This document shows positions 2,435 through 34,871 of a stretch of 34,871 nucleotides of DNA, in pieces. The stretch lies in the IMG/VR virus record IMGVR_UViG_2541047758_000018. The stretch is one strand, 5' to 3'. This stretch comes from a virus. Its lineage: Duplodnaviria > Heunggongvirae > Uroviricota > Caudoviricetes. Every line of letters starts with the position of its first letter. Position 1 is the first letter of the stretch. Under the pieces are notes generated by a model. That model ran no database searches and was not told the DNA's origin. It was given only the letters and a program-made list of their open reading frames with translations. Both the position numbers and the translations under genes were made by a program.

Positions 2435-2435
2435 C

Positions 2436-3070: not shown

Positions 3071-3082
3071 CGGAGACTGAAA

Positions 3083-4544: not shown

Positions 4545-4550
4545 GTGCCG

Positions 4551-6412: not shown

Positions 6413-6422
6413 GGATGGAGCC

Positions 6423-10634: not shown

Positions 10635-11096
10635 ATGGAACTAAAATTTATTGATAACCCTGTGCGATTACAGGCCTTTCTTAACGAGCCAGGCAATACC
10701 GAAAATATTGTTGAGCCGGGGCACACGTACTACATCAAGCCTGATGCGGTATATCTCGGCATCTACGAAGGATTAGTGCTGGCTGGCGTTCATGAAGTGC
10801 GTAACTTCTGGCATAGCGTTGTTGAATGCCATGCGGTGTACGACCCCGGATTCCGTGGTGAATATGCACTGCAAGGGCATCGATTATTCTGCAAATGGCT
10901 TCTCGAAAACTCACCATTCCTTAACAGCATCACTATGGTTCCTGACACCACGAAATACGGACGGGCAATTATCCGTTTGCTTGGCGCTACCCGTGTTGGT
11001 CACCTTGATGATGCTTATATCAGATGTGGTAAACCCGTCGGCGTAACGCTTTATCAGTTAACTCGGCAACAATATAAGGAATTCAGCGAATGTTAA
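10635..11096 (+). CDS. Hypothetical phage-like protein (153 aa), first large gene of ejection-protein-like operon
   Basis: ORF 16 nt downstream of the small regulator-like ORF; no motif recognised; position is analogous to P22 gp14 or T7 gp13 ahead of the ejection proteins. Confidence 0.5.
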   Translation: MELKFIDNPVRLQAFLNEPGNTENIVEPGHTYYIKPDAVYLGIYEGLVLAGVHEVRNFWHSVVECHAVYDPGFRGEYALQGHRLFCKWLLENSPFLNSITMVPDTTKYGRAIIRLLGATRVGHLDDAYIRCGKPVGVTLYQLTRQQYKEFSEC

Positions 11097-15414: not shown

Positions 15415-15444
15415 TGAAGTGGTCAACAAAAACTGGCCACCGAG

Positions 15445-16628
<1,184 letters not shown>

Positions 16629-17051
16629 CTCTGTTCAGGTGGCCAAATTCAGTAAACCACTTCAGTTCCTGGAGATGATTCGTTGCTTGTGAGCAAGAGG
16701 TGGTCCGCTTTACTGGACAAGTTTTGCATTTGTTGAGTGGTGAAATGGAAGTAAAAAGAGCCCCTTTCTGGCAATGACTGAAAAAGTCAGTAGCGTGTGA
16801 CAGTAAAAACTAACATAAAGTGATTATCGTATGATTATGACAATGACTTATAACTTTTATGAAAAGAACAACAGAAACTATGAAACCATAGCAGATTCCT
16901 GAGACCATGTTTTTTGAGGTAGAGAAAATAATTCAAGAGTAAACCAGTTTGTTTTTTGATCAGTAAAGAACCATGCCTGATGTGAAAACGGGTAATCAAC
17001 ATTCAGTCTGCATGAGTGTCTGAGAATGTTGCTAATGTCGGTATGATACTA

Positions 17052-17210
17052 TATACACATATTTTACTAAGTATTTTTACTAAGCATTTCAGTAAGTGTT
17101 ATACACGTATTTTCTACTAAGTGTTTTACCAGACATACACGTATTTTCATAAACACTTCTACAAGTGTTTTCATTAAGTATTGTTATACACATTGCTTTG
17201 TCTGACACAC
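17052..17210. repeat. Imperfect direct-repeat array (ATACAC[A/G]TATTTT and ACTAAGT[G/A]TTTT motifs, about 4 copies) inside a 1.37-kb ORF-free region
   Basis: atacacatattttactaagtatttttactaagc / atacacgtattttctactaagtgttttacc / atacacgtattttcataaacacttctacaagtgttttcattaagt / atacacattg; no ORF of 60 aa or more on either strand between 16665 and 18034. Confidence 0.5.
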
Positions 17211-17980
17211 ATCCAGTTTAGTAAATCTTTACGTTAGCTAAAATCAGTTTAAAGCTGCTACAAAGCAATCTTTCCTGTTTAAGCAATCAAGATGACATTC
17301 TGTTTTTCTGAAGTTACGTTTAACCTTTTCTGAGTTTTTGTGTTTTTGGTCGTTAACCGGAGAAAAGTATCTTTACGTAAAAACGCAAATCCGACTGAGA
17401 TAACCTGGCGTGATTTACGGAGTGCTTACGACGATTTAGTTAAATGGTTTTATGGATGATTTTGTAGCGATGAGGTTGATGAGATGATTAACTGGCCCTG
17501 GTGTTTTTTTTTCTCAGAGCAAGGCTCTTTTCAGAAAAAGCGTGATGATTGGTTCTGGTGTTTTGATTCAGATGAGGTTTACGTTATCGATGGTTAATCG
17601 CTTTTATGGTGCGTAGTGAAACGTAACATTTTCAGGATGAGAAAATCGATTCTGATGTTAGTGGTTTTTGTTCTTGGGGTGGGGTTATCTGTAAACAGGT
17701 TTTAAACGCGCTATTCGGCTCTGTGATTGAGTTGTGTGGTTAAGCTATAGGTTTTGGTGTTGTTGTTGATTCACAGCGCCAGAAATCGTTCTGATTGCGT
17801 TTTTGATGTTTTGTTTGCACGTTCTGTTGATCCGTTTCCCTTCTGACTTTTCTCGTCGTCCATGCCGTTTTTAAATTCATTTGCTGTTGTTGTGTTTTTT
17901 TACCATCTTTTCGTTTGTAGGGGATTCCATTTTTATCCGGAGTAGGTTGTGTTGCTCAATGGTGGGAGTTCGTAAAGTTT

Positions 17981-18024
17981 TACCGCGGTGATTAATGATG
18001 TGAAGTCAATCCAAATCAATGGAG
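17981..18024 (+). promoter_or_regulatory. Conserved roughly 44-bp motif, copy 1, ending 10 nt upstream of the first YagK/YfjJ-like gene (includes its Shine-Dalgarno ggag)
   Basis: taccgcggtgattaatgatgtgaagtcaatccaaatcaatggag; near-identical core to copy 2 at 18917-18956. Confidence 0.45.
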
Positions 18025-20839: not shown

Positions 20840-21181
20840 TCAGCGCTTTCTGGCTTTTCGTCGGTCATTCAGCACCATTAGCCGGGCCTCTGCCTCTTTC
20901 TGTTCCTGTAGTGTCACTTCCCCGCACGGCAGCCCCTTCAGATCGTAACGGGCGCCATCTGCCATTAACGCACATGAATAGTGCGGAGACTGCACATAAG
21001 ACGCCACTGCCGCGTGTAATGTACCAGCGCCAAACGCCAGTTCTCTGATGGCGATATCCTGTATCAGGTCGTCAGGTATCTCAACTTTAAGCGGTTGGGG
21101 TTTTTCCCGGTTGAATAACTCAGGCCAGAGTTCCACAAGACGATTAATACGCTTACGGTTTTTACGCTGGCGTTTTGTCAT
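20840..21181 (-). CDS. ProQ/FinO-domain RNA-binding protein (113 aa)
   Basis: LVELWPELFN...PLKVEIPDDLIQDIA...LHAAVASYVQSPHYSCALMADGARYDLKGLPCGEV aligns by eye to E. coli ProQ (LAERFPHCF...PLKIGIFQDLVDRVA...[35 protein letters not shown]). Confidence 0.65.
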   Translation of the reverse strand: MTKRQRKNRKRINRLVELWPELFNREKPQPLKVEIPDDLIQDIAIRELAFGAGTLHAAVASYVQSPHYSCALMADGARYDLKGLPCGEVTLQEQKEAEARLMVLNDRRKARKR

Positions 21182-22074: not shown

Positions 22075-22509
22075 ATGAGTAAGAAGAAAATTTCTTTTGA
22101 AAATGAAGAGTTCATTACTTACCGGGCATTACTTCTGAGTATTGACTTTGTTAAAAAACTGGTTATAGAAATGTCTGATGAAGATTTAAATAAGGTTAAG
22201 GAAAACTTTGACATAGCTATTCAGCAACGTAATGAGCGAAAGGAAAATATGAAAGCTATCAAATCACTCATGGATGAACATGGTATATCTCTGGAAGATT
22301 TTTATTGTGAATTTGGCAAAAAATCACAGGCAGGCAGAAAAAGTGTGTCAGGAAGGCATAAATACGAGTATGACGATAACGGTAAAAGAATGTACTGGAA
22401 TGGACAAGGACGTCGGCCTAAGGCCATAGCAGAGGCTATAAAAGCCGGAGGTTCTCTTGATGATTTTCTTATATCTCAGGAAGTATCATCTGGTCCTGAT
22501 TATGAATAA
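22075..22509 (+). CDS. H-NS family nucleoid-associated protein paralog (144 aa), island-borne
   Basis: C-terminal DNA-binding signature YEYDDNGKRMYWNGQGRRPKAIAEAIKAGGSLDDFLI matches H-NS Y.Y.DENGE.KTWTGQGRTP..I.....LDDFLI; N-terminal coiled-coil-like region; AT-rich gene. Confidence 0.8.
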   Translation: MSKKKISFENEEFITYRALLLSIDFVKKLVIEMSDEDLNKVKENFDIAIQQRNERKENMKAIKSLMDEHGISLEDFYCEFGKKSQAGRKSVSGRHKYEYDDNGKRMYWNGQGRRPKAIAEAIKAGGSLDDFLISQEVSSGPDYE

Positions 22510-22925: not shown

Positions 22926-23498
22926 CTACATATAGATAAATTCATATTTCACGATATACGACCCAATTTTATTAACACGAGCTGTTACCCATACACCTGT
23001 CATCCCCTGTTTATGGTGACTGCGCGGGAACTCTTTATTTGTACAAAGTTGTATCCATCTGGAAGTGTTTTGATCTTTCAACCAGAGTCCCGCTTCACAA
23101 TGTCCATACTTTCCTCTTGATGGTCCCGGAAAAACAACATCATATTCAGATTCATAGCTAATAACCTTATCCGGAAAAAGATAAACACAGACATCGTAAC
23201 AGTTCAGACTCAGTATAAATCCAAGACAAAATCCCCCCGTGAATGCATTTAATAAATACTTTAATGTTCTGTTAAAGGTGCGGATATAAAATGCATAAAT
23301 AAAAGAAAGAGAACCGGTGGTTATACCGGTGCAAAAATATGTTGTCCATTCAGGTACCGTATTTTGTAAAACAGTATAATGAGATATGGCGGATGCCCAC
23401 AACATATACCAGCACAAACCACCTGCAATAAGATATGTTATTGCTGTGGAAAACCATTTCCTGTATTTATTTTCAGGGTGATTGTTTTTGCCCATCAA
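22926..23498 (-). CDS. Hypothetical membrane protein (190 aa, about 4 predicted TM segments plus C-terminal soluble domain)
   Basis: Hydrophobic stretches ITYLIAGGLCWYMLWASAI, GITTGSLSFIYAFYI, FTGGFCLGFILSL; AT-rich; lies 97 bp downstream of, and co-directional with, the dGTPase gene. Confidence 0.5.
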   Translation of the reverse strand: MMGKNNHPENKYRKWFSTAITYLIAGGLCWYMLWASAISHYTVLQNTVPEWTTYFCTGITTGSLSFIYAFYIRTFNRTLKYLLNAFTGGFCLGFILSLNCYDVCVYLFPDKVISYESEYDVVFPGPSRGKYGHCEAGLWLKDQNTSRWIQLCTNKEFPRSHHKQGMTGVWVTARVNKIGSYIVKYEFIYM

Positions 23499-23595: not shown

Positions 23596-24849
23596 TTACT
23601 TCAGACAGTGAGTTTCCCATTCCTTGACTGCAAATGTATCCATCATACCTGAAATATAGTCAACCACTGCTCGTTTTTTGCTGATTTTAAATATATAGGA
23701 ATCTGGTTGGGGTAAGGTGAATTTAAGTTCAGGAGGCAGAAATTTATAATTCTCTCCTTCATTGTAAAAGTCATATAAATCCCTGATTATTTTATTTCCC
23801 CTGAACTCATAGGTGAGGATATTACGTTTTCGCATGATGACTTTAAAGAGAAGTTTTTTGAGCCCTTCGGATAACGCATTCAGTTTCCCGAATCCCAGTT
23901 CCTGAAAACCATTCAGGTTCGTTACTACAGAAATATCTGCAACGAGGCGATTGACAATATTTGAAGTTAACTCCTTGCGGAATATGATGGCAAATTCTTC
24001 TGAGGTTTTCAGTAAGTTAGCCTGAAAAGCGGTGTTTCTCGACTGAGTAACGATTTCCCTGAACTGTTCCCTCGCTCCCCGGAATTCGTCAGAAATCTGA
24101 AACTCATATTCAATATCTTCAATCGTGACCATGTTCCTGCTAAGGGCATCTTCCAGGTCATGCGCGGCATAGGCAATCTCATCCGCGAGATCCATTATCT
24201 GCGCATCAATCGTTTTCTCTCCGGGATTCAGATCGAGCTGATTTTCAGCAAGCAGGTTAATGTAAAAATAGTAATCATCATCATAAATGAACTTGCCGGC
24301 AGTAGCTGCAGCGCGGGGGATGGGATACTTAACAACCGAAAGTAAACTACGGTGAGTCAGATTTAATCCGTTGCAGTATGAAAATTTCTTCTCCAGTTTT
24401 CTCAGGATACGTAGCGCCTGTGCATTGCCTTCATAGCCGCCGATTTCTTCAGACAGTTCATTAAGCAGTTTTTCACCGGAATGACCGAAAGGAGGATTTC
24501 CGATGTCATGCGCCAGCGCTGCCAGTTCAACCACCACCGGGTTAACCAGTTTGAGGTCTGACGCGATACTTCGGGCGATCTGAGCAACCTCAAGACTGTG
24601 CGTTAATCTGTTTCTGTTGAATTTTTCAGGATCAATTTCAAAAAGTTGCATCTTTCCCTGCAGCCTGCGAAATGATGATGAATACAGAATACGCGCATAA
24701 TCCCGTTGATAATTATCCCGGCTTCTTGTTTCACCATCGGGGGACGGGTGCTCTCTGGTATCAGCAAGCGCACTGATAAGTTTTTGTTCCTGCTCTTGCG
24801 CAAATTCTTTTAATTCATTGCAGTACATATTTCTTCCTTTCTGGAGCAT
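23596..24849 (-). CDS. dGTP triphosphohydrolase-family HD-domain protein (short form, 417 aa) - probable antiphage dNTP-depleting dGTPase
   Basis: Aligns by eye to E. coli Dgt motifs: FRRLQGKMQLF (IRRLQQKTQVF), RLTHSLEVAQIARSIA, LAHDIGNPPFGHSGE, YEGNAQALRIL, MDLADEIAYAAHDLEDA, DYISGMMDTFA; shorter than housekeeping Dgt (505 aa). Confidence 0.85.
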   Translation of the reverse strand: MLQKGRNMYCNELKEFAQEQEQKLISALADTREHPSPDGETRSRDNYQRDYARILYSSSFRRLQGKMQLFEIDPEKFNRNRLTHSLEVAQIARSIASDLKLVNPVVVELAALAHDIGNPPFGHSGEKLLNELSEEIGGYEGNAQALRILRKLEKKFSYCNGLNLTHRSLLSVVKYPIPRAAATAGKFIYDDDYYFYINLLAENQLDLNPGEKTIDAQIMDLADEIAYAAHDLEDALSRNMVTIEDIEYEFQISDEFRGAREQFREIVTQSRNTAFQANLLKTSEEFAIIFRKELTSNIVNRLVADISVVTNLNGFQELGFGKLNALSEGLKKLLFKVIMRKRNILTYEFRGNKIIRDLYDFYNEGENYKFLPPELKFTLPQPDSYIFKISKKRAVVDYISGMMDTFAVKEWETHCLK

Positions 24850-24978
24850 GTTACCAAATCAGAATACCGGATGAACAAAACTGGTGGCTACATCCTGTAG
24901 GGATTATGTATTAGTAAGCTCTGGCCATTAGTGCCATTTCAGGTTATGTGATCCTACTCACGTAATATGGACACAGGC

Positions 24979-25845
24979 CTAAGTGAGGTTCTGGTTTTCA
25001 AATTGTTCCGGACTGAGGCCGCCACACCAACTGTGCCGCCGCCACCGATTGTAATCACATTCGATATAATTAAACACCGTTGCCCGCATTATTTCCCGGC
25101 TGATAAAGTGTTCTCCATGGATACATTCCACTTTCAGCGAATGAAAGAAGCTTTCCACGCAGGCATTATCGTAGCAGCAACCTTTTGCGCTCATACTTCC
25201 ACGCAGATTATGCCGCTTCAGTTGCGCCTGATAATCTGCTGAACAGTACTGGCCTCCACGGTCCGTGTGAACGATAACGTTCCGGGGCCTCTTACGCCGC
25301 CACAGCGCCATCTGCAGGGCATCGCAGGCCAGTTGCGCCGTCATGCGTGGCGACATTGACCAGCCAATAACGGCACGTGACCACAGGTCAATGACCACTG
25401 CCAGATACAGCCAGCCTTCATCTGTACGTAAGTACGTGATGTCTCCTGCCCACTTCTGGTTCGGGCCACTGGCGTAAAAATCCTGCTCCAACAGATTTTC
25501 TGACACAGGCAGGCCGTGTGCGCGGTAGCTGACCGGGCTGAACTTCCGGGAGGCCTTTGCCCTCAGTCCCTGACGGCGCAGGCTTGCCGCCACGGTTTTT
25601 ACGTTAAAGGGGTAACCCTGAGCACGCAGTTCATCCGTCAGGCGTGGGGCACCGTAACGCTGTTTTGACCGGGTAAAAGCCGCGAGGACAACGCTGTCGC
25701 AGTGTTGGCGGAACTGCTGACGCGTGCTTATCCTTGTCCGCCGCTGACACCACGTATACCAGCCGCTGCGGGCCACCCGGAGCACGCGGCACATTGCTTT
25801 GATGCTGAACTCAGCCTGATGTTTTTCAATAAAGACATACTTCAT
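24979..25845 (-). CDS. insF: IS3 transposase OrfB (InsF)
   Basis: [32 protein letters not shown] ... [34 protein letters not shown] ... HTDRGGQY is the IS3 InsF sequence as I recall it. Confidence 0.9.
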
Positions 25846-26150
25846 TTCAGGCGCTTCGCGAAGTATGTCGCGGCCTTTTGGAGGATAGCCAGCTCTTCAT
25901 CCCGTTCTGCCAGCTGGCGTTTGAGACGTGCAATCTCGGTAGACATCTCCAGTTCACGTTCAGAAGACGTCTGCTGATTTTGCTGTTTACTGCGCCAGTT
26001 GTAGAGTTGTGATTCATACAGGCTGAGTTCACGGGCTGCGGCAGTAACACCGATGCGTTCAGCAAGCTTCAGGGCTTCACTGCGAAATTCAGGCGAATGC
26101 TGTTTACGGGGTTTTTTACTGGTTGATACTGTTTTTGTCATGTGAGTCAC
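25842..26150 (-). CDS. insE: IS3 transposase OrfA (InsE)
   Basis: [52 protein letters not shown]...; start may be the internal ATG (MTKTV). Confidence 0.9.
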
Positions 26151-26297
26151 CTCTGACTGAGAGTTTACTCACTTAGCCGCGTGTCCACTATTGCTGGGTA
26201 AGATCACCCTGTGAACCATGTTGATATTGATACTATATTGACTATATGCCATACAGGTGGTAATGATTAGTTACTACCATACAGGAAAAGGTAGAAA

Positions 26298-27278
26298 ATG
26301 ACTCTTTTGGTAACGGCTGAGTGTGTTGACGATCTGATAAACGATGTTCATCAAGCTATCCTAGCGGATGGACTCAGTAACGATCCTACAAAAGGATCAA
26401 CTCTAGAGATTCTTGGTGCCTATCTTGTCCTTACCGACCCCCGCCGAAGAATAAGTAGAACAGAATCCCGAGGAAAACTAATTAGTTGCTTAGGTGAATT
26501 TCTGTGGTATCTCTCAGCTCAGAACGATCTTGAGTTTATAAAACACTTCATACCACGTTACGCTGAATCCGCTGAGTCAGATGGGAAAATACATGGTGGT
26601 TACGGGCCACGGTTGTTTAATATGCGTGGTTTATATAATCAGCTAAAAAATGTCATCAACCTTTTGCAGGAGAAAAAACCTACCAGACGTGCAGTAATAC
26701 AGCTTTTCGATGCCTCAGACTTGGTGCCCTCAAAAACTGAACAGCGAGAATACGTAGATATTCCTTGTACAATATCTATGCAGTTTATTGTCAGATGTGA
26801 AGAGCTGCATCTATTTGTTTGTATGCGTTCTAACGATGCCTTTATGGGGCTGCCTCATGATGTATTTGCGTTCACGATGCTACAGGAATTAGTTGCCCGC
26901 TTGATAGGATGCGAATTGGGTCACTATCATCACTTTGTATCCAGCCTACATCTCTATAAAAATGATTTAGAAAAAGTGAAGGCTCTTCAGAAAGAGGGGT
27001 TCATGAGCACCCTACCAGTCATGGGATCGATGCCTGAAATGCATTCCTTAGATGATATCTTACCCCTGCTTGAGGCAGAAAAAGCTCTTCGAGAGAATAA
27101 GGAATTTGATATTGACACTACTTCCTTGAATGACTACTGGAAGGATTTATTGCGTATATTAAAAATCCACTTTTTGTTACGTTCACATACACCCAACCAC
27201 AAAGGACTAGCCTTCCAAGAGTTGGCTGCAATGAAAAATCAGGAATATCGGTTTATTTTTGAAGGAAGACTACAATGA
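26298..27278 (+). CDS. Thymidylate-synthase-fold pyrimidine C5-modifying enzyme (ThyA / dCMP-hydroxymethylase-like), 326 aa
   Basis: Aligns by eye to E. coli ThyA: LISCLGEFLWYL (IIHELLWFL), RRAVIQLFD (RRIIVSAWN), nucleophile Cys in IPCTISMQF (APCHAFFQF), MRSNDAFMGLPHD (QRSCDVFLGLPFN), HLY (THLY). The specificity Asn is replaced by Asp, as in dCMP hydroxymethylase. Confidence 0.8.
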   Translation: MTLLVTAECVDDLINDVHQAILADGLSNDPTKGSTLEILGAYLVLTDPRRRISRTESRGKLISCLGEFLWYLSAQNDLEFIKHFIPRYAESAESDGKIHGGYGPRLFNMRGLYNQLKNVINLLQEKKPTRRAVIQLFDASDLVPSKTEQREYVDIPCTISMQFIVRCEELHLFVCMRSNDAFMGLPHDVFAFTMLQELVARLIGCELGHYHHFVSSLHLYKNDLEKVKALQKEGFMSTLPVMGSMPEMHSLDDILPLLEAEKALRENKEFDIDTTSLNDYWKDLLRILKIHFLLRSHTPNHKGLAFQELAAMKNQEYRFIFEGRLQ

Positions 27279-28219
27279 AAAGACATAATCAAATCAGTCA
27301 GCTGGTTAGTAATTTGCAAAATTTTAGCCGCAATGAACACAACCTAAATGGTCTAAGTTCTCCTGCCTGCTTTGATGTTTTAGCCTGTCAGATTATCGAC
27401 AGTATACGTCGTATACGCTATGTGGAAACTCTTGCATTACGGACCGATTATATGACTCCGTTACGAAAAGAGCCGAATTCTGATGTTTTTGATCCTCTCC
27501 GCGCTGCCTGCCTTTATCTTCGTGACAACAATTACGATGAAGCCTGCTGGCTGGTTTTCCTTGCCACACATTTCGGCAAGAGTAACAAAACCGGCTGGAT
27601 TTTGTGTCGAGATATATACAGTGGACTCGGTACACAAACGTGGACATGGGATACGATAACTGATGACTTTGCTGCTTTTGAACAATGGTTCGCCAGCGTC
27701 TCTGATGAGTTGACAGCTAACAGTAGCCTAAGACAATATGGTAACCATCGGAAATATGAAACGAAGAAATATCACTCTCGTCGTTCAATACCTGCGGTTT
27801 TTCGCTCTTACATCGGATTCATTGGTGCTACACACAGTCATGAGGCTAGGTTTGCAGAGGCCAAGAGCTTTTCATCTTCACCAGAATCTTTATTCGAACT
27901 ATTGTATTCAGGGCTAAATGCCGTGATCTCATTTGGACGAACCGCAAAATTTGATTACCTAACTATGCTCAAGAAAACGGGACTTCTGGATGTAGAGCCG
28001 GGTCATGCTTTTCTGAATGGAGCAACCGGGCCCCTTCAAGGAAGCCGGCTACTTTTCAGCAATAGCCGGACTGCTGGTGACACAATAGACGTATTGAATG
28101 AAAAACTAGCTGACCTTGCGGCAATTATTCCTGCACCCTACTTGAGAATGCAGGTTATTGAAGATGCGTTGTGCAACTGGCAGAAATCACCTGACCGTTA
28201 TGTCTATTTCGGCGGCTGA
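27275..28219 (+). CDS. Hypothetical protein (314 aa), translationally coupled partner of the ThyA-like enzyme; function unknown
   Basis: ATG overlaps the ThyA-like stop (ATGA at 27275-27278); no motif I can assign with confidence. Confidence 0.6.
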   Translation: MKRHNQISQLVSNLQNFSRNEHNLNGLSSPACFDVLACQIIDSIRRIRYVETLALRTDYMTPLRKEPNSDVFDPLRAACLYLRDNNYDEACWLVFLATHFGKSNKTGWILCRDIYSGLGTQTWTWDTITDDFAAFEQWFASVSDELTANSSLRQYGNHRKYETKKYHSRRSIPAVFRSYIGFIGATHSHEARFAEAKSFSSSPESLFELLYSGLNAVISFGRTAKFDYLTMLKKTGLLDVEPGHAFLNGATGPLQGSRLLFSNSRTAGDTIDVLNEKLADLAAIIPAPYLRMQVIEDALCNWQKSPDRYVYFGG

Positions 28220-28221
28220 TA

Positions 28222-29304
28222 TCAGACGATATCTTCTTTACGGAATCTCACTTTAAACCGATTAAGGTGAGAAAAAGGTATATTACCTTCATGCTGCAAA
28301 TATCCCAGTACGATCCCTTTGGATACCCCCATTTTCCTAGCTAACCGGATGATCTCTTTCCAATGCCGGACACCATAGCGACTAAGTTGCTGCCGGTATT
28401 CTTCTGGGATAAGAACATCAACGGCAAATTTATCTGCTTCCTTTTCCTCTTCCGACGAAAGACTATCTTTACCTTCTACGCGAACTCGGACAGCTTCATG
28501 CAAGATGAGATGCCCAATCTCATGAAACAGCGTAAACCAAAAATGGTCATCGGTCAGATAACGGAAACTCATGACTAGGGTTGCGCGATCTGGTGTAAAA
28601 AAGCAGGTAGCACCACTTGCCCGACATCCCTTTGGCGTTGGCAACACAACGAGAGAAACTCCAGCAGTGGCGAGAAGGTCGCGAATGTAAGGGATAAAAA
28701 TCCTCATGTCGGGTTCATTTGTAGCTTTGCGCAGTTCTGGCAACAATGCTATCAGCACCTCTTTATCCCATACAGCACAGTTTTGGTTTGAGGTAAGTTG
28801 TGCAGCCCTAGTCAGCCACACCAAATCGGCCATAGGCTCGGTTGCCAGATTAAGAGATTTACGAAAAGCGACCAAAGGAGCATCTGACTGAATTTTATAA
28901 AAAAAATCATTGACGGAATTTATTCCGAAAAACGATAGGCAGTGCTGGAATTTACTTTCCCGAGTTGTAGTTTTGGGGATCCAACCAAACTCCATCATAT
29001 CACGTACAGGCAATGATTCGAGCCAATCATTATTCACTTTCTCGAGGTATCCAATTTGCTGGCGATAAGCGACTTCGCGCTTGATCCAGAAGTCTGTCGA
29101 TACGTTGAATAACTCCTCAAGCTTACAAGCCAGAGACTCATTGAGTCGGATTTTTCCTTCAAGAAGTTGCTGACCCCGGATAAGAGACAATCCAATCCTC
29201 TTACTCAGTTCTTCACCAGAAAGCCCATGTTCATCCATTAGATCTATAATTGTATCACCGGGTGGAGATACCCAGTCAGGCTGGAAGTCCTGCGTAACTA
29301 TCAT
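28222..29304 (-). CDS. HTH (XRE-type) + ImmA/IrrE-family zinc metallopeptidase fusion protein (360 aa)
   Basis: N-terminal HTH GDTIIDLMDEHGLSGEELSKRIGLS; C-terminal HExxH motif FHEIGHLILHE with downstream EKEAD, typical of the ImmA/IrrE (COG2856) peptidase domain. Confidence 0.75.
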   Translation of the reverse strand: MIVTQDFQPDWVSPPGDTIIDLMDEHGLSGEELSKRIGLSLIRGQQLLEGKIRLNESLACKLEELFNVSTDFWIKREVAYRQQIGYLEKVNNDWLESLPVRDMMEFGWIPKTTTRESKFQHCLSFFGINSVNDFFYKIQSDAPLVAFRKSLNLATEPMADLVWLTRAAQLTSNQNCAVWDKEVLIALLPELRKATNEPDMRIFIPYIRDLLATAGVSLVVLPTPKGCRASGATCFFTPDRATLVMSFRYLTDDHFWFTLFHEIGHLILHEAVRVRVEGKDSLSSEEEKEADKFAVDVLIPEEYRQQLSRYGVRHWKEIIRLARKMGVSKGIVLGYLQHEGNIPFSHLNRFKVRFRKEDIV

Positions 29305-29627
29305 TTCACGTCACCTATGAACACTAACCGTATCCGGCTAACTCGGGACCAGTTAATTGTATTATCTTGATTTTTGGGCTGAACTGTATTCCCACAGACA
29401 AATCCCATTTTTACATCACCGAGAATGGTAATTGTAATACACTCTTCCCCATCCTCAAAGCAGACCTCCGGCGAACCTACGGGCAACAGTAATATGTTGT
29501 CTGTCACGGAAAGATCGGAAAGTCGCGAGCGTAGTCTTGATGCCACTTTGTCACCAAAGATCTCATTTGCCTCATGCATACTCTCGCAAATAGTCCTTAA
29601 CTTCTTGCTTTGAAAGGTAATGAACAA
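29301..29627 (-). CDS. Small protein (108 aa) overlapping the start of the HTH-peptidase gene; possible toxin-like partner (RelE/HigB-like?), unverified
   Basis: 4-nt overlap with the downstream HTH-peptidase gene implies co-translation; weak resemblance to killer-protein N-termini (MFITFQSKKLRTI...); family call is a guess. Confidence 0.35.
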   Translation of the reverse strand: MFITFQSKKLRTICESMHEANEIFGDKVASRLRSRLSDLSVTDNILLLPVGSPEVCFEDGEECITITILGDVKMGFVCGNTVQPKNQDNTINWSRVSRIRLVFIGDVK

Positions 29628-29728
29628 AATTATCCACTTTTATTTTTCTTGGTTGCTACGTTTATAGCAAACTCAACGCTCATTCACAAAATGAGATGTA
29701 GCGAATTAATGGACTCTGCACATATTAA

Positions 29729-30034
29729 ATGTTAATGATGGACTTAAAATCACGGATTCGTAAGGGAAACATGAAAGGTAAACATCAAGACACTAAAGCC
29801 CTGTCTGACGTGCTAGCGGAAATGCAACGGCAGGATGCCAAATGGGGGGCAGACCGTAATCAAGATCCTTTTATCTGGGGAGCGATTCTCGGAGAAGAGG
29901 TGGGAGAATTTCATCAGGCTGTCCTCCATGATCGTTTTGGTGGTAAAGCAGCCGGTACCAGTAGGGAGGAAGCAGTACAAATTGCTGCTGTTGCACTGCA
30001 AATCATCGAATATTATGATCGCGTAATAGATTGA
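29729..30034 (+). CDS. Small all-alpha protein, possibly MazG-like nucleotide pyrophosphohydrolase (101 aa; true start may be internal at 29771)
   Basis: ILGEEVGEFHQAV (E-E-x-x-E motif) and REEAVQIAAVALQIIEY resemble the MazG/NTP-PPase metal-binding helices. Confidence 0.35.
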   Translation: MLMMDLKSRIRKGNMKGKHQDTKALSDVLAEMQRQDAKWGADRNQDPFIWGAILGEEVGEFHQAVLHDRFGGKAAGTSREEAVQIAAVALQIIEYYDRVID

Positions 30035-30336
30035 TAAATTAGAATTAATCAACTAAGAGTCTTTTACACGCGAAGATGAACTCTGGCAGCCATCTACCTT
30101 CGTGGGCCTGTAGAACACATCTAATTGCAATACTCCCAGTTAATCACTAACCAGCCTCTCCAGTAAGGCTGGTCGATTAGGTTTAATTAAACAGATATAA
30201 CAAGCAATTCACTTGGTATTACGCGGTTCACACAGACTTCTTTAGTTGTGTCATATCCTATAACTTTCAGAGGCTTATTTACGGTATTATCACGAACGGT
30301 GCAAAAGTGGCTCTTCCGCAACCTAGGTGGAGATTT

Positions 30337-30957
30337 TCATGCCAGTGGACTCATTACCCTCTGCCTAAGTAGTTCAAATCCGGCTCGACCATACATCAGA
30401 CGTTTCAGCATCTTCAGGCGATTTACATGACCTTCGACAACACCGTTACTCCAGCGGCTGCTGGTTGCCTCACATATAGCCGCGGCATCAGCTTCCATCC
30501 CCGCAGCCACGCGCCGAAGTTCTGCTGAACCGTTTTCGTGGACTCGAGTGAACCAACTGCTTAGATTTGATTTATTTGGGGTTTTCAGAATACGGTAGAA
30601 CTCAAGTACTAGTTGCTGCGCTATTTTCAGCGCCGGTTCTTTTTCACACATCAGACTAATAAATCGGGAAGCATAATTTTCTTCACCCCTGATTATTATC
30701 CAGGGCATCAACCAGCGGCTTACCCGGGACACTGAAGGAAGTCTGGCGGCAGTAGTAACTGGTGGGTTCCAGCCTTTACGCCATTTGGCAACAGCATCCC
30801 TGACGATGGTTTCACTGCCTGTAACCCCCGGCCACCATTTCCCGCCATATCCAGTCGCTGGTGTGCTGAATTGGTCATGTATGAAGGAAGATATCAATGG
30901 TGGTATCTCCCTTTCAAAAGGAAGTGAAAAGCTTGATGCCTGCTGCCAGGCAATCAA
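30337..30957 (-). pseudogene. ISL3-family transposase remnant (C-terminal part intact in frame, N-terminal part decayed)
   Basis: C-terminus WSNGVVEGHVNRLKMLKRLMYGRAGFELLRQRV fits the ISL3 C-terminal pattern SNG..EG.N.[KR].K.LKR..YG...F; the upstream two thirds of the ORF are not transposase-like, and short broken ORFs (30977-31174, 31265-31474) follow on the same strand. Confidence 0.55.
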
Positions 30958-31454: not shown

Positions 31455-34400
31455 TTGATGGAGCAGTCTCTCAATTTTGAAATGTTGCGCAGCCAGTGGC
31501 CGGAACTGGCTGAACTCGCGTGTATGGCGGAACGCTATGTTCACTCCGATCCGGAAAGTTGTCTGGTCAAGCTGCGCAACTACACTGAATTGATGGTGCG
31601 CTGGTTGTATCGTCAGGAGCGGTTGCCGGAAGGTATTAAGGCTAATCTTTACGATTTAATGAATGCTGATGTCTTTACCAGCATGATGCCGGAAGCCATC
31701 ATCATGAAAATGGATGCGCTGCGTATCCATGGCAACCGTGCCGCGCACGGCGGACGTATCAAAGCTAAAGATACTTACTGGCTGCTCAAAGAAGCGTATT
31801 TGTTGGGAATTTGGCTGTATGTTCGCTACGCCCACGGTAATGTTGATGACTGCCCCAAATTTACACTCCCTCCATTAACACAATCTTCAGGTCGTGCAGA
31901 TGAAAAACGTCTGGAAGATGCAATCAGGGCTCAGGATGAAAGCCGTGAGCGCGAACTGGCGCTGCAACGCGCACTACAGCAAGAACAGGAAAAGGCCGAA
32001 CACCTCACTCAACGCCTGAATGAAGCCAGAGCGCGTAACCAGCATGTTGCCGATATTCTCTCTATTGATGAAGCGGAAACCCGCCGTCGCCTGATTGACT
32101 CTCGCCTGCTTGCTGCTGACTGGAATGTAGGCGAAGGCCTTAAAAATACCGATCAGGTTACGCAGGAACATCCCGTTAAAGAACAACCTACCGCGACCGG
32201 AGACGGTTATGCGGACTATGTCTTGTGGGATGAGGCACACAAACCGCTGGCGGTGGTGGAAGCAAAAAAAACCAGCGTCAATGCCGAGCAAGGACGAATT
32301 CAGGCCCGGCTGTATGCAGACTGGCTGGAAAAAGAATACGGCCAGCGTCCGATCATCTTCTACACCAACGGCTATGATATCTGGCTGTGGGATGACCATA
32401 AAACTCATGGTTATCCCCCGCGTCGGGTGTTTGGCTTCTACAGCAAGGAAAGCCTGCAATATCTTATTCAACAGCGTGAAACCCGTCTTCCGCTGAACAG
32501 TGTGCCGCACGTAAAAGATAACGAAGGTAAGGCCGTTGCCGGACGTTTGTACCAGCTTGAAACCATTGCCCGTGTCAGCGAGCGGTTTACCAACAAATAC
32601 CGGCAATCGCTAATTGTTCAGGCTACGGGTACAGGCAAAACCCGCGTGGCAATAGCGCTAAGCAAACTGATGATTGATGCCCGCTGGGTAAAACGCGTCC
32701 TGTTTCTTTGCGACCGCAAGGAACTACGTAAACAGGCGGCGAATGCCTTTAATCAATTCACCAATGAGCCGCTGTATGTGGTCGGGAAATCGAAAAAAGC
32801 AGACAGGCAGAATGCTAGGATCTACATCGCCACCTATCCTGGTATGATGAAAATCATGGACCATTTCGATGTTGGTTATTTCGATTTGATCATCGCCGAT
32901 GAATCCCATCGCTCTATCTACAACGTTTACGGCGATCTGTTTAAGTATTTTGATGCCCTCCAGATTGGCCTGACGGCCACGCCGATTGACATGGTGAGTA
33001 AAACCACTTTCGGCCTGTTTGGTTGTGAAGGACGTATTCCTACCGCCAACTACAGCCTGGAAGATGCCATCGCCGATAACAATCTGGTTCCCTATGAGGT
33101 TGTCACGCACACCACAGAATTCCTGCGCGAAGGCATCAAACGGGAGAAATTAAGCGACGCACAAATCCGCGAGCTGGAAGAACAAGGCATAGATCCCAAT
33201 ACGCTGGAGTTTGATGGCAAGGCGCTGGATGAGGCGATCTACAACAAAGACACCAACCGCTATATCCTGCGTAACCTGATGGAAAATGGCCTGAAAGATC
33301 GGGACGGCCAGTTGCCAGGTAAAACCATCATTTTCGCCCGTAACCACAAACACGCGCTGCTGTTGAATGAATTATTCGACGATATGTACCCGCAGTTTGC
33401 CGGGCGCTTCTGCCAGGTCATCGACAATTACGATCCCCGCGCCGAGCAACTGATTGATGATTTTAAAGGGCTGGATGAAAGCACCAACAAAGAGCTGACC
33501 ATCGCTATCTCCGTTGACATGCTCGATACCGGTATTGATGTCCCGGAAATTGTGAATCTGGTCTTTGCCAAACCGGTCAAATCAAAAGTGAAGTTCTGGC
33601 AGATGATTGGCCGTGGTACGCGCCTCTGTCCGGGGTTGTACGGTTACGACGATAACGGCAAACCTCTGGATAAACAGAAATTCCGCATTTTCGATCACTG
33701 GGGCAATTTTGAGTATCACGAACTGCATACCGAAGAGGCCGAAGTCACAGCGACAAAATCGCTTGCACAAAAACGCTTCGAAGCGTGGGTTATGCTGGGG
33801 GCCGCTGCGCAACGTAAATTCGACAAACAGGCGGTGGATTTAGTTGCTCACCAGCTACGCGAGCAAATCAATGCACTGGATGAAAAGTCGATTGCCGTCC
33901 AGGAAAAGTGGCATCAAAAAGCGCAGTACAGCGATGAAAAAGTGCTGCGCCAGCTTTCCCCGAAAACACAGCAGGATTTGCTATCTGTCCTGGCCCCGCT
34001 GATGCAGTGGCTGGACGTGCGCGGGCAAAGCGACGCTATGCGCTTTGATATGGATATTCTGGCGGCGCAAACTGCCCGTTATACCAACCCGGAAGAGCTG
34101 GATGTGCTCTGGCCGGTCATCGTCGAAAAAGTGGAGCGCCTGCCGCCGCATTTGGCGCAAGTCCAACAGCAAGGACCGCGGATCAATCAGCTTCGTGATT
34201 TAGGCTGGTGGAAGCAGGCCAGCCTGGAAGAGCTGGAAGATATCCGCATTCATCTGCGCGGCATCATGCACCTGATGGAAAAAGACGCGACGCCGAAATT
34301 TGGTTCGATACAGGTGGATATTACCGAAGATGCGAACCTGATTCAGACGGAAAACCGTAAAACCAACATCCGCTCGATTGACTTCAAACTCTATCGCCAG

Positions 34401-34871
34401 CAGGTGCAGGGAGCGCTGGAGCCGCTGTTCCAGCAAAATCCGGTGCTGAAGAAAATCCGCAACGGCGAGCCTGTGACGCAAAGCGAGCTGGATGAACTGG
34501 CTAAACTGGTGCTGATCCAGAACCCTAACGTTGATATCCGGGCACTGAAAGAGTTCTACCCGCAGGCGACCGCCAGCCTGGATAAACTATTGCGTACCAT
34601 CATCGGGATGGACAGCGACGCGGTGGAAGTGCGCTTTGCTCAGTTCGCCGCTGATAACAGCCTGACCAGCCAGCAATTGCGCTTCCTGTCATTGCTGAAA
34701 AACCACATTCGCGATTACGGCACCATTGAAATGCGGCAGCTCTTTGAACAGCCTTTTACGCATATCCACAACGAAGGCGTTACCGGTGTGTTCCCTGATA
34801 TAGAACAGATCGCCCGCCTACAAAAGATAGTCGAAGAGCTGGGTGTTGTGACCGACGCAGCAACGGTATAA
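31455..34871 (+). CDS. hsdR: Type I restriction-modification system restriction (R) subunit, HsdR (1138 aa)
   Basis: Aligns to EcoKI HsdR from memory: N-terminal domain MMEQSLNFEMLRSQ (MMNKSNFEFLKG), nuclease motif YADYVLWDEAHKPLAVVEAKK (FADYVLFVGLKPIAVVEAKR), helicase motif I VQATGTGKTRVAIAL, motif II IIADESHRS, later TATP and MIGRGTRL. Ends at the last base of the window, so hsdM/hsdS are expected downstream. Confidence 0.9.
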   Translation: MMEQSLNFEMLRSQWPELAELACMAERYVHSDPESCLVKLRNYTELMVRWLYRQERLPEGIKANLYDLMNADVFTSMMPEAIIMKMDALRIHGNRAAHGGRIKAKDTYWLLKEAYLLGIWLYVRYAHGNVDDCPKFTLPPLTQSSGRADEKRLEDAIRAQDESRERELALQRALQQEQEKAEHLTQRLNEARARNQHVADILSIDEAETRRRLIDSRLLAADWNVGEGLKNTDQVTQEHPVKEQPTATGDGYADYVLWDEAHKPLAVVEAKKTSVNAEQGRIQARLYADWLEKEYGQRPIIFYTNGYDIWLWDDHKTHGYPPRRVFGFYSKESLQYLIQQRETRLPLNSVPHVKDNEGKAVAGRLYQLETIARVSERFTNKYRQSLIVQATGTGKTRVAIALSKLMIDARWVKRVLFLCDRKELRKQAANAFNQFTNEPLYVVGKSKKADRQNARIYIATYPGMMKIMDHFDVGYFDLIIADESHRSIYNVYGDLFKYFDALQIGLTATPIDMVSKTTFGLFGCEGRIPTANYSLEDAIADNNLVPYEVVTHTTEFLREGIKREKLSDAQIRELEEQGIDPNTLEFDGKALDEAIYNKDTNRYILRNLMENGLKDRDGQLPGKTIIFARNHKHALLLNELFDDMYPQFAGRFCQVIDNYDPRAEQLIDDFKGLDESTNKELTIAISVDMLDTGIDVPEIVNLVFAKPVKSKVKFWQMIGRGTRLCPGLYGYDDNGKPLDKQKFRIFDHWGNFEYHELHTEEAEVTATKSLAQKRFEAWVMLGAAAQRKFDKQAVDLVAHQLREQINALDEKSIAVQEKWHQKAQYSDEKVLRQLSPKTQQDLLSVLAPLMQWLDVRGQSDAMRFDMDILAAQTARYTNPEELDVLWPVIVEKVERLPPHLAQVQQQGPRINQLRDLGWWKQASLEELEDIRIHLRGIMHLMEKDATPKFGSIQVDITEDANLIQTENRKTNIRSIDFKLYRQQVQGALEPLFQQNPVLKKIRNGEPVTQSELDELAKLVLIQNPNVDIRALKEFYPQATASLDKLLRTIIGMDSDAVEVRFAQFAADNSLTSQQLRFLSLLKNHIRDYGTIEMRQLFEQPFTHIHNEGVTGVFPDIEQIARLQKIVEELGVVTDAATV

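Follow-up and report, generated by a model that had tools for sequence, protein, structure and literature searches.

Do the nucleotide-metabolism genes found between positions 23596 and 30034 of this stretch of DNA, a 34,871-nt E. coli genomic island (the window), belong to one system or to several? The original prediction named a dGTPase, a ThyA-like and a MazG-like enzyme, took them to be probably separate systems and read into them a theme of nucleotide-pool-directed immunity. All three genes are present where they had been placed, and an IS3 element and an HTH-peptidase gene do lie between them. The ThyA-like label needs correcting, however, and the inventory was incomplete, as a fourth nucleotide or nucleobase enzyme of the aGPT-Pplase3/ADDT type and a 108-aa ORF (orf108) had been overlooked. 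The segment very probably comprises two unrelated units with IS3 as the join, namely a lone dGTPase gene and one conserved cassette containing a thymidylate synthase (TS)-like gene, Pplase3, an XRE-M78 regulator gene, orf108 and the MazG-like gene. This two-unit, one-cassette layout is well supported.

Layout and distribution of the two units

The dGTP triphosphohydrolase-family gene (23596–24849, minus strand; PGAP start at 24828, 410 aa) is a unit of its own outside the cassette. Its product contains HD and HD_assoc domains (Pfam), matches the PADLOC dGTPase model (E 1.4e-109) and passes TIGR01353 (317 bits, cutoff 152); with NF041026 antiphage_dGTPase it scores 285 bits, under the cutoff of 400. 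Single-gene dGTPases of this kind are known to defend bacteria by depleting dGTP once infection has begun. The gene is intact in the window and differs from the intact S3 allele by one substitution, while strains 4FM and FORC064, otherwise identical-looking, have a 1-nt deletion at 23674 and their dGTPase is annotated as frameshifted.

The IS3 element (24950–26206, minus strand) lies where the dGTPase segment meets the cassette. Its transposase ORFs at 25842–26150 and 24979–25845 match Pfam HTH_Tnp_1, rve and rve_2, and PGAP labels the locus ‘IS3-like element IS3 family transposase, programmed frameshift’. No target duplication was found at its ends, which are flanked by ATG and CCC with no matching 3 bp. 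Strain ABU 83972 has the dGTPase without the cassette, and its homology to the window breaks off at the IS3 end. E. coli ET450 has the cassette without the dGTPase, in a copy of 79.5% identity that retains all five genes and lies beside tRNA-Leu/integrase, with another type I R-M system close by. Outside E. coli, a dGTPase gene lies beside the cassette in 0 of 79 loci. The two units are thus separate, each occurring alone in E. coli. The arrangement of both together is present in ~186 E. coli genomes, which are so alike (at least 98.9% identical among the matches listed) that the linkage was counted as one event.

The cassette consists of an operon of the TS-like and Pplase3 genes facing a convergent operon of orf108 and XRE-M78, and this gene order recurs unchanged in 79 loci that span more than 10 phyla; the genes overlap or nearly abut. 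Pplase3 is flanked by the TS-like gene in 73 of the 79 loci and by the convergent XRE-M78 gene in 77, and orf108 was detected in 76/80 loci by iterative search (51/79 by tblastn). No genes accompany the TS-like/Pplase3 operon more constantly, in each of the phyla sampled, than the HTH-peptidase gene, earlier regarded as a spacer, and orf108. Clustering beyond chance holds for the four core genes, which are syntenic across phyla in 75–80 of 80 loci, and within Enterobacterales for the MazG-like gene (8/8), but not for the dGTPase; accordingly, separateness as first proposed applies to the dGTPase alone. The cassette is mobile and sparse in its distribution. Its carriers are islands and 10 plasmids, and it was absent from 50,697 phage records. 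In other taxa the flanks are often housekeeping genes (gyrB, uvrB), not defence islands.

The predicted location in accessory DNA adjoining a type I R-M locus was borne out. A gene for an R-subunit-like helicase-nuclease (31455–34871, plus strand, running off the window) belongs to a neighbouring system outside the cassette; its product matches NCBIfam PRK11448 (1.7e-99) and the EcoAI-type R subunit (2.7e-68), though neither match reaches its cutoff. Downstream of this gene, the near-identical strain 4FM encodes HsdM, HsdS and an AAA ATPase.

The enzymes of the cassette

The TS-like gene (26298–27278, plus strand; WP_000174035.1, annotated ‘thymidylate synthase’) encodes a TS-superfamily enzyme (Pfam Thymidylat_synt, 5e-25) predicted to be a dCMP C5-hydroxymethylase. 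Its best PDB match is the CMP 5-hydroxymethylase MilA (1.6e-41, residues 26–304), whereas any true thymidylate synthase reached 1e-18. The catalytic residues are E67, C157, H218 and Y220. By the specificity rules of PMC5175136, R130 and S178 specify deoxyribose and D188 specifies cytosine. ThyA has a uracil-specifying Asn in the place of Asp188, and the dUMP hydroxymethylases M6 gp58 and DS-4A also differ from the family in having Asn there. C157, S178 and D188 are invariant in 68/68 family members. From these residues we infer that the ‘ThyA-like’ protein is a cytosine-specific, deoxyribose-type C5 hydroxymethylase-like enzyme; sequence does not separate hydroxymethyl from methyl transfer. 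A consensus scan predicted a sigma-70-like promoter for the operon (TTGACT-N18-AATGAT, 26238–26267, plus strand) that survives downstream of IS3, and both hexamers are kept in Enterobacterales copies of ~79% nucleotide identity.

Pplase3 (27275–28219, plus strand; WP_000820616.1) is translationally coupled to the TS-like gene, its start overlapping the upstream stop by 4 nt (ATGA). The protein is an aGPT-Pplase clade 3 member and amino-acid:DNA-transferase (AADT) homolog (Pfam aGPT-Pplase3, 4.8e-90; ADDT, 9.1e-59), related to the enzymes by which phages hypermodify DNA, and on the ADDT model it scores 199 bits versus 160 bits for the characterised AADT M6 gp51. The motifs GNHRKYE and Q-x-x-E-D-x-x-C-N-W-Q-K are invariant, and C300 and E296 align with Cys247 and Glu243 of M6 gp51. 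All 3,903 homologs are cellular, with no match among the 50,697 phage records. Clade 2 relatives, the mechanism of which has been described (PMC8989533), act on DNA and require phosphorylated 5-hmdU. The window and the 80 cassette loci were found to contain neither a nucleotide kinase nor a 5-hmdU DNA kinase. The substrate of Pplase3 may be DNA instead of a nucleotide.

The MazG-like gene (29771–30034, plus strand; WP_000676590.1) encodes an 87-aa protein of MazG-superfamily fold (AF_0060-like) with Gln in the second metal motif, where Asp is usual. It occupies a fixed position in all eight Enterobacterales cassettes and is a lineage-specific, accessory fifth member. Most cassettes lack it, so the mechanism must be able to run without it.

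The XRE-M78 regulator and orf108

The XRE-M78 gene (28222–29304, minus strand) encodes an XRE-family HTH fused to an M78 (ImmA/IrrE) Zn-peptidase (Pfam HTH_3 and Peptidase_M78). In PADLOC the protein matches PD-Lambda-2_B (3.3e-30) and RmrA (3.9e-10), and its HTH domain weakly matches HigA TIGR02607 (7.6e-5). The HExxH motif (H261, E262, H265) is invariant in 71/71 members. We predict that the protein serves the cassette as sensor, regulator or antitoxin. The stop of orf108 (29301–29627, minus strand) overlaps the XRE-M78 start. The layout of the control module matches that of RosmerTA, in which overlapping genes encode first a toxin and then an antitoxin (RmrA) combining an HTH with an ImmA-type peptidase.

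The family of orf108 comprises 757 representative clusters, and those distant homologs that were checked again lie beside M78 and Pplase3 genes. HigB-like_toxin was the sole recurrent Pfam match, always sub-threshold (9/75 members, best 0.0046). One profile gave a match to GraT (6f8s, E 0.82) that disappeared with a deeper profile, and the AF2 model (pLDDT 43.7) was too low in confidence to use. On these matches, orf108 is possibly a very divergent HigB/RelE-like toxin.

The regulator operon and the MazG-like gene share a divergent intergenic region containing the palindrome TTGCTA-N6-TAGCAA (29653–29670), a candidate XRE operator. It is kept in eight Enterobacterales copies, in the Pectobacterium copy (62–75% identity) only in part. 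The palindrome is absent from the TS-like promoter. No operator is common to this promoter and the promoter region of the regulator, so there is no support for XRE-M78 controlling the enzymes at the level of transcription.

Proposed role and competing readings

The exact TS-like protein appears in the DefensePredictor listing (Science 2026) as a predicted defence gene with a log-odds of 7.63, the stringent cutoff being 4; the cassette does not belong to the 94 units tested there, and the overall validation rate was 45%. The related TS-containing system DS-4, whose TS is 29% identical to the TS-like protein, is experimentally protective. PADLOC matched the dGTPase and XRE-M78, while the TS-like protein and Pplase3 matched none of its models. 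Homology searches did not reassign two or more of the enzymes to non-nucleotide functions; nucleotide-directed functions abound in the segment, and immunity directed at the nucleotide pool is still the best reading. A defence role of the cassette is plausible and somewhat favoured; its location on islands and plasmids and its absence from the phage records speak for such a role, the housekeeping flanks in other taxa against it.

Starting from what was observed (which genes are present, their synteny, their folds, and the residues for catalysis and specificity), we infer a defence role, a trigger, the substrates of Pplase3 and of the MazG-like protein, and an outcome for an anti-phage system that would act on the deoxycytidylate pool. 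XRE-M78, whose layout is that of the RosmerTA antitoxin RmrA, would keep the system switched off until it is itself inactivated by infection. dCMP would come from dCTP through the MazG-like protein, and the TS-like enzyme would convert dCMP into 5-hydroxymethyl-dCMP with methylene-tetrahydrofolate. The conserved Cys/Glu of Pplase3 would then perform further chemistry at C5/C6 of this product, making the diversion irreversible or producing a toxic analogue, so that phage DNA synthesis would be starved or poisoned. orf108 may be a toxin acting as second effector, or it may partner the peptidase. This specific mechanism is tentative, and doubtful in its details.

The original view, that nucleotide-pool defence genes independent of one another (three as named, four in reality) gathered in the island beside an unrelated HTH-peptidase regulator or toxin-antitoxin module, is very unlikely. 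The dGTPase is truly independent, most cassettes do without the MazG-like gene, and defence genes cluster in islands, here with an R-M locus adjacent. Accumulation does not, however, explain four-gene synteny over more than ten phyla with heterogeneous flanks; the four core genes contradict it, and the 4-nt overlap and the fixed position of the MazG-like gene also argue against it. A small-molecule pathway resembling early mildiomycin or bacimethrin biosynthesis appears more improbable than any other reading. Here 5-hydroxymethyl-(d)CMP would be formed and Pplase3 would free 5-hydroxymethylcytosine, in analogy to MilA and MilB, giving an antimetabolite or nucleoside-antibiotic precursor. Among solved structures MilA is much the nearest to the TS-like protein, C-terminal extension included, an N-glycosidase acts after MilA in the MilA pathway (PMC4081090), and a glycosylase-like fold is predicted for Pplase3. 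Yet the residues that determine ribose specificity (R130, S178) are those of a deoxy-type enzyme, where MilA/BcmA have K and A. Pplase3 has a transferase-type Cys/Glu and no relationship to MilB, conservation around the cassette does not extend to other genes for biosynthesis, export or resistance, and the mobility and sparse distribution of the cassette do not fit such a pathway.

Modification of bases in DNA is rather improbable. It would require that 5-hydroxymethyl-dCMP be raised to the triphosphate by host or phage kinases and incorporated, Pplase3 then acting on 5-hydroxymethylcytosine in DNA, either to set a mark that shields the element itself from restriction or as a means of damaging or hypermodifying phage DNA in which hydroxymethylated pyrimidines are already present. 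Pplase3 is indeed a full-length homolog of amino-acid:DNA transferases, with the Cys/Glu motif kept and a score above that of the characterised enzyme, and the cassette resides on islands and plasmids, with R-M systems alongside in two E. coli contexts. By established T4 biology, however, E. coli without the phage gp1 kinase cannot phosphorylate 5-hydroxymethyl-dCMP, and the window and the 80 loci contain no nucleotide or 5-hmdU DNA kinase; glycosyltransferase and amino-acid-processing genes are likewise absent. Phages are the usual home of DNA hypermodification systems, and clade 3 is missing from the phage records. Toxin-antitoxin-like control would also be unusual for constitutive self-marking. 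We consider unlikely, finally, a RosmerTA-type toxin-antitoxin system with enzymatic accessories, in which orf108 would arrest growth, XRE-M78 would be antitoxin and sensor, and the modified nucleotide would serve as activation signal, cofactor or host protection instead of killing by pool depletion. The layout, the HigB and HigA matches and the constancy of both genes beside Pplase3 are in its favour. Against it, the toxin call for orf108 was sub-threshold in every test, the pair was not seen alone among the distant homologs checked, and strict conservation of catalytic residues in the TS-like protein and Pplase3 argues for central, not accessory, enzymes.

Our preferred reading, that of two units joined by IS3, with the cassette as a RosmerTA-like controlled system diverting or derivatising the deoxycytidylate pool, has as a whole slightly less than an even chance of being correct. 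The core cassette is conserved across many bacterial phyla.

Island architecture and the dGTPase

The window represents a genomic island of Escherichia coli. Segment 23400–30300 is about 100% identical to several complete E. coli genomes, the best matches differing by a single-base insertion or deletion, and at least 80% of it is present in 186 of 5,426 genomes. The left end of the window (1–9871) carries a P4-type integrase, an AntA antirepressor, an Ash-family protein and a primase/DUF927 gene, the backbone of a P4-like satellite or integrative element. P22-type DNA-ejection genes (10635–16628; DUF2824, gp7-like, injectosome translocase-like and an 830-aa SLT-domain protein) are found without other virion genes. 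An IS3-family element (15445–16628, minus strand) cuts these genes and is overlapped by the SLT-domain gene; the block looks like a prophage remnant. The interval 17001–18000, between this element and a YagK/YfjJ gene, has 36.9% G+C, a strong AT skew and no ORF as long as 90 aa. Left of the dGTPase, the YagK/YfjJ gene, a ProQ/FinO-like ORF (20840–21181, minus strand; frameshifted in the annotation of related strains) and an H-NS paralogue (22075–22509, plus strand) represent CP4-type backbone, the latter two belonging to the part of the island backbone that bears the dGTPase. On the far right lie an ISL3 transposase fragment (30337–30957, minus strand) and a type I R-subunit-like gene (31455 to the window end, plus strand). 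In the near-identical strain 4FM (locus L001:20059–28851), HsdM, HsdS, a 540-aa AAA ATPase and a 298-aa hypothetical gene come after the R-subunit-like gene, beyond the window end; the whole constitutes a type I R-M locus carrying two additional genes.

The original prediction had placed three clustered nucleotide-metabolism enzymes in this region, a dGTPase, a ThyA-like and a MazG-like protein. This was essentially right but incomplete, since the aGPT-Pplase clade 3/ADDT homolog encoded at 27275–28219 (plus strand; hereafter Pplase3) was missing from the list. The dGTPase call was borne out. The protein (23596–24849, minus strand) contains the Pfam domains HD (1.2e-14) and HD_assoc (5.4e-15), aligns over the whole PADLOC dGTPase model (residues 21–413, E 1.4e-109) and passes TIGR01353 (317 bits, cutoff 152). 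It fails the NCBI curated exception model for anti-phage dGTPases, NF041026 (284.7 bits, cutoff 400), which assigns it to a subfamily other than the curated one. Apart from this lower score it resembles the anti-phage dGTPases that act as single-gene dNTP-depletion systems, with the HD and HD_assoc domains, an intact frame and a location in accessory DNA. The 417-aa ORF differs by one substitution from the intact 410-aa allele WP_000271621 of strain S3. Across 6.9 kb, strains 4FM and FORC064 differ from the window only in the loss of 1 nt at window position 23674, which frameshifts the gene (annotated by PGAP as a pseudogene in 4FM); the window copy has no such deletion. The dGTPase is therefore being lost in part of the lineage while the cassette described below is kept. 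The gene was found in 318–344 E. coli genomes. A hypothetical 190-aa ORF just downstream on the same strand (22926–23498, minus strand), with weak membrane-protein-like Pfam matches, accompanies it in strains ABU 83972 and S3 and may be its partner.

An IS3 element (24950–26206, minus strand) separates the dGTPase from the genes to its right. Strain ABU 83972 contains the dGTPase and IS3 and has no cassette; homology to the window ends exactly at the IS3 end, ruling out cassette loss by a deletion that left a remnant. The bases flanking IS3 (24947–24949, ATG; 26207–26209, CCC) show no matching 3-bp target-site duplication, as fits a recombination junction. This points to IS3-mediated recombination or deletion, and not simple insertion, as the event that linked the dGTPase side to the cassette side. 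By its domains and distribution the dGTPase is a putative stand-alone defence gene of a known kind, unlinked to the cassette.

A syntenic cassette around Pplase3

Loci anchored on Pplase3 were collected from species-representative genomes (79 loci, or 80 once a second E. coli copy was added), and gene presence was scored by tblastn and iterative HMM search over all ORFs. The 79-locus sample covers Proteobacteria, Acidobacteriota, Planctomycetota, Verrucomicrobiota, Bacteroidota, Chloroflexota, Actinomycetota, Myxococcota, Saccharibacteria and others. Besides the anchor (80/80 loci), a gene for a thymidylate synthase (TS)-superfamily enzyme (TS-like; 26298–27278, plus strand) lies upstream of Pplase3 on the same strand in 75/80 loci, its absences falling mostly at contig ends. 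A gene encoding an XRE-type HTH domain and an M78 peptidase (XRE-M78; 28222–29304, minus strand) lies directly downstream of Pplase3 in 78/80 loci, convergent and often overlapping, and a 108-aa ORF (orf108; 29301–29627, minus strand) overlaps it from upstream in 76/80. The gene for the 87-aa MazG-like protein (29771–30034, plus strand) is restricted to eight of the 80 loci, all from Enterobacterales, where it is divergent and always about 145 bp past orf108. The dGTPase is absent (0/80).

This pangenome comparison, proposed with the original prediction as a check on which genes travel together, thus found TS-like, Pplase3, XRE-M78 and orf108 syntenic in 75–80 of the 80 loci. The HTH-peptidase gene, originally regarded as part of a spacer between the enzymes, is a core member. 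The view that the enzymes belong to separate systems holds for the unlinked dGTPase, but there are two units, not three or more; we consider it very probable that the segment is built of two units, one of them a conserved cassette.

In E. coli the block 26200–30100 was found in 232–257 genomes, nearly always whole, and the cassette occurs in about 4% of complete genomes. Strain ET450 has a copy of all five cassette genes, 79.5% identical, at a tRNA-Leu/integrase site; it lacks the dGTPase and adjoins a different type I R-M system. A TIR-domain gene fragment (ET450 locus L002:21472–21633) is located beyond that R-M locus, indicating that the ET450 island also gathers defence-type genes. Flanks are heterogeneous across the sample; their largest ORFs in other taxa mostly represent housekeeping genes or are spurious and due to high GC. 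For this reason the idea of a defence-island enrichment of the flanks was dropped, and the cassette is seen as a self-contained module instead of an accumulation of island genes.

Two variations on the gene order were noted. In the Enterobacter hormaechei representative (L013:7572–9974) an inserted IS21-like transposase gene separates TS-like from a truncated Pplase3 and disrupts the cassette. About 23 of the 79 cassettes (among loci L019–L083, e.g. L019:9173–9973 and L020:1390–2187) have an extra gene of about 266 aa between TS-like and Pplase3, with the strongly conserved motifs LGLNPSNREF, CHLDLIPYAT and GFNHNIQSSFGVT and without a Walker A motif. The motifs prompted the guess of a UDG-like glycosylase, for which Pfam, NCBIfam and a PDB profile search gave no match.

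Cassette enzymes and the XRE-M78/orf108 module

The original assignment of the TS-like protein as ThyA-like was correct at the level of the superfamily (Pfam PF00303, 5.3e-25) and wrong in detail. Among solved structures it is closest to MilA, a CMP 5-hydroxymethylase (1.6e-41 over residues 26–304, including the MilA C-terminal extension), true thymidylate synthases reaching only 1e-18, and it misses every NCBIfam ThyA equivalog model widely (best 81 bits, cutoff 327). Specificity was read from the MilA alignment using mutagenesis-based determinants (Zhao et al., 2016; PMC5175136). The catalytic residues Glu67, Cys157, His218 and Tyr220 are kept, C157 aligning with MilA C155 and the TS cysteine, while R130, S178 and D188 align with MilA K133, A176 and D186. 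An Arg/Ser pair denotes the deoxyribose type and Asp the cytosine type, whereas ThyA and dUMP hydroxymethylases have Asn in place of the latter (PMC5175136); Asn occupies the D188 position in two dUMP hydroxymethylases, gp58 of phage M6 and DS-4A of the defence system DS-4. Among 68 full-length homologs from cassette loci, C157, S178 and D188 never vary and 67 have Arg130; the uracil-specifying Asn (N177 in E. coli ThyA) is absent from the TS-like protein and from all 68 family members, which have Asp instead. Arg130, Ser178 and Asp188 together predict that TS-like acts on dCMP, as T4 gp42 does; the sequence is compatible with either hydroxymethyl or methyl transfer. 'Thymidylate synthase' is thus a misleading annotation for this family. 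A conserved putative promoter (TTGACT-N18-AATGAT) upstream of TS-like survives the IS3 insertion.

The start of the overlooked Pplase3 gene overlaps the TS-like stop codon. Its product matches Pfam aGPT-Pplase3 (PF18746; 4.8e-90, 302 bits) and ADDT (PF18724; 9.1e-59, 199 bits), the latter with a higher score than the 160 bits of the characterised amino-acid:DNA transferase (AADT) gp51 of phage M6. The aGPT-Pplases are predicted to be HhH, glycosylase-like proteins, and those of clade 2 were shown to be amino-acid:DNA transferases that use an essential Cys and a neighbouring Glu to attack phosphorylated 5-hydroxymethyl-dU at C6 in phage DNA (PMC8989533). No biochemical characterisation of clade 3 was found in the searchable literature. 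Clade 3 has an invariant motif Q-x-x-E-D-x-x-C-N-W-Q-K (E296, D297 and C300 in the window protein) that aligns with QEVETVLCKWK of gp51, C300 corresponding to Cys247 and E296 to E243; no other cysteine of gp51 falls on a position that is invariant in clade 3. We infer that E243 and C247 are probably the residues mutated in the AADT study, the main text of which gives no residue numbers. The Pplase3 family comprises 3,903 homologs in cellular genomes and was found on 10 plasmids; a pattern scan gave 327 bacterial species representatives, a lower bound. There was no tblastn match among 50,697 phage records. Homologs of the M6 5-hmdU DNA kinase proteins gp54/gp55 were likewise absent from the window and from the 80 loci with 10 kb flanks.

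For the MazG-like protein the original assignment stands as to fold, but not as a match to any curated model. PGAP names it 'MazG-like family protein'; even at E 10, Pfam, NCBIfam and PADLOC gave no match, and comparison with the PDB gave best E values of 0.16 (profile search) and 0.08 (Foldseek). The family is small (67 matches, mostly Enterobacterales) and has the conserved motifs RQDxKWG, ILGEEVGE and RxELVQ. The first metal motif is present, with E42, E43 and E46 nearly invariant; in the second, E67-x-x-Q70, a nearly invariant Gln replaces the usual Asp. The all-alpha helical-bundle fold of the MazG/NTP pyrophosphohydrolase superfamily is supported, the activity being putative.

XRE-M78 contains Pfam HTH_3 and Peptidase_M78 domains and matches PADLOC PD-Lambda-2_B (3.3e-30) as well as many RmrA models (down to 3.9e-10); its HExxH motif (HEIGH) is invariant in 71/71 homologs. 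In RosmerTA, a validated family of defence systems, RmrA is the antitoxin, with HTH and ImmA-peptidase domains, and is paired with diverse toxins whose gene usually comes first. With its 4-nt overlap upstream of XRE-M78, orf108 sits in this toxin position. Its only recurrent Pfam match is HigB-like_toxin (PF05015), always sub-threshold (9/75 members, best 0.0046). A 24-sequence profile (A3) matched the HigB-family toxin GraT (6f8s) at E 0.82, a match lost with a 75-sequence profile (A5), and an AF2 model from a shallow alignment (pLDDT 43.7) has the secondary structure alpha-alpha-beta-beta-beta. Orf108 is thus a possible toxin, as judged from gene position and remote similarity. Of two distant orf108 homologs recovered by an exhaustive library search, both adjoin M78 genes and one also adjoins Pplase3. 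The palindrome TTGCTA-N6-TAGCAA (29653–29670) is conserved between orf108 and the MazG-like gene and absent from the TS-like promoter. As no operator common to that promoter and the orf108/MazG-like intergenic region was found, we make no claim that XRE-M78 directly represses the enzyme operon.

A possible deoxycytidylate pathway and its alternatives

The DefensePredictor report (Science 2026; PMC13092281) gives exactly this TS-like protein, WP_000174035.1, the label 'predicted novel defense gene' and a log-odds score of 7.63 (stringent cutoff 4; overall experimental validation rate 45%), and it highlights aGPT-Pplase and MazG among predicted, unvalidated defence domains. The cassette is not among the tested units described there, and no other description of it was found in the searchable literature. 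The cassette is accordingly a predicted candidate defence system, and we think a role in defence fairly likely.

A dCMP-type C5 enzyme and an AADT-like protein with retained thiol chemistry are conserved partners, which suggests a short deoxycytidylate pathway. Where present, the MazG-like protein would convert dCTP to dCMP, TS-like would convert dCMP to 5-hydroxymethyl-dCMP, and Pplase3 would perform a further C5/C6 transformation. In phage T4 the dCTPase gp56 accompanies the dCMP hydroxymethylase gp42, and Enterobacterales cassettes similarly add an NTP-pyrophosphohydrolase-fold protein beside a hydroxymethylase-type enzyme. To our knowledge, E. coli cannot phosphorylate 5-hm-dCMP without a phage kinase, as established for T4, so that the pathway would drain or poison the dC pool. 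Defences based on dCTP deaminases and dGTPases are known, and a dC-pool drain is in line with both. TS-like shares the gp42 signature Arg, Ser and Asp (PMC5175136). Unlike the T4 pathway, the cassette has neither a gp1-type kinase nor a glucosyltransferase, is host-encoded under a toxin–antitoxin-like module, and has a TS-like enzyme nearer to MilA than to true thymidylate synthases. We favour this dC-pool mechanism over its rivals, although our confidence in its specific steps is low. More doubtful still is its extended form, in which clade 3 and the obligately cytosine-type hydroxymethylase would constitute a bacterial immune pathway making a hypermodified deoxycytidine nucleotide (a C5-substituted dCMP, formed from 5-hm-dCMP by thiol-mediated substitution and without a kinase) that serves as a nucleotide sink, a chain poison or a signal, the pathway being set free when the XRE-M78 sensor inactivates itself by proteolysis.

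The enzymes might instead act on DNA. In thymidine hypermodification by phages M6, ViI and PaMx11 (PMC8989533), a dUMP hydroxymethylase and a 5-hmdU DNA kinase work with a clade 2 aGPT-Pplase/AADT, and in the cassette, too, a C5 hydroxymethylase-type enzyme of the TS superfamily is found together with an AADT homolog that is full-length and keeps the catalytic Cys and Glu. The cassette differs, however, in the cytosine-type Asp188 of its TS-like enzyme, where the phage enzyme has the uracil-type Asn, and in lacking both the 5-hmdU DNA kinase and the PLP, radical-SAM and FAD tailoring enzymes; it resides on bacterial genomes and plasmids, with none in the phage records searched, and nearly always includes XRE-M78. 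The validated E. coli system DS-4 ('NTTI') consists of a TS, a dNMP kinase, a 5-hmdU DNA kinase, a TIR protein and NMAD2 (PMC13092281). Its TS is 29% identical to that of the cassette (E 1e-28), and both systems are nucleotide- or base-modification-themed and found in E. coli accessory DNA. As described there, DS-4 differs in its uracil-type Asn (DS-4A), in having kinases, TIR and NMAD, and in having no Pplase, M78 regulator or orf108, the TS domain alone being common to both. Cytosine-type chemistry, the missing kinase, cellular distribution and the XRE-M78/orf108 module separate the cassette from thymidine hypermodification and DS-4. Small-molecule biosynthesis would agree with the closest solved structure being MilA, of the mildiomycin pathway, which like BcmA of the bacimethrin pathway shares the cytosine-type Asp with TS-like. 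Unlike these enzymes, with Lys/Ala at the ribose-selecting positions, TS-like has the deoxy-type Arg/Ser; its partner is AADT-like and not a MilB-type N-glycosidase as in MilA/MilB and BcmA/BcmB, and there is no biosynthetic gene cluster.

A further alternative is a toxin-centred, RosmerTA-like system to which the enzymes are accessories. As in RosmerTA and PD-Lambda-2, the cassette has an XRE-HTH and M78 fusion with intact HExxH, matches to RmrA and PD-Lambda-2_B, and a small overlapping upstream gene. Unlike in RosmerTA, the pair is joined to an enzyme operon and orf108 lacks a match to a PADLOC toxin model; no autonomous XRE-M78/orf108 unit was seen, the two genes being joined to TS-like/Pplase3 in 75–78 of 80 loci. 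PADLOC matches component B only, PD-Lambda-2 A and C being absent, and orf108, TS-like, Pplase3 and the MazG-like protein match no PADLOC model. A last alternative is that the genes are independent of one another; TS-like, Pplase3, XRE-M78 and orf108, however, keep their order across the sampled phyla.

As to the original interpretation, the theme of nucleotide-directed immunity was upheld, while the number of units and the role of the HTH-peptidase gene, which should be annotated as a cassette member, were not. If the cassette does act in defence, it would be a compact and widespread module, present in no fewer than 327 bacterial species representatives, in some 4% of complete E. coli genomes and on plasmids, and would provide a first function for aGPT-Pplase clade 3. 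It would represent a third kind of pyrimidine-directed immunity beside dCTP deamination and dGTPase-type depletion, in which the enzymology of phage self-hypermodification is re-used, shifted from uracil to cytosine and placed under a toxin–antitoxin-type switch. Were the hypermodified-nucleotide reading true, bacteria would have turned the enzymology of phage DNA hypermodification against phages.
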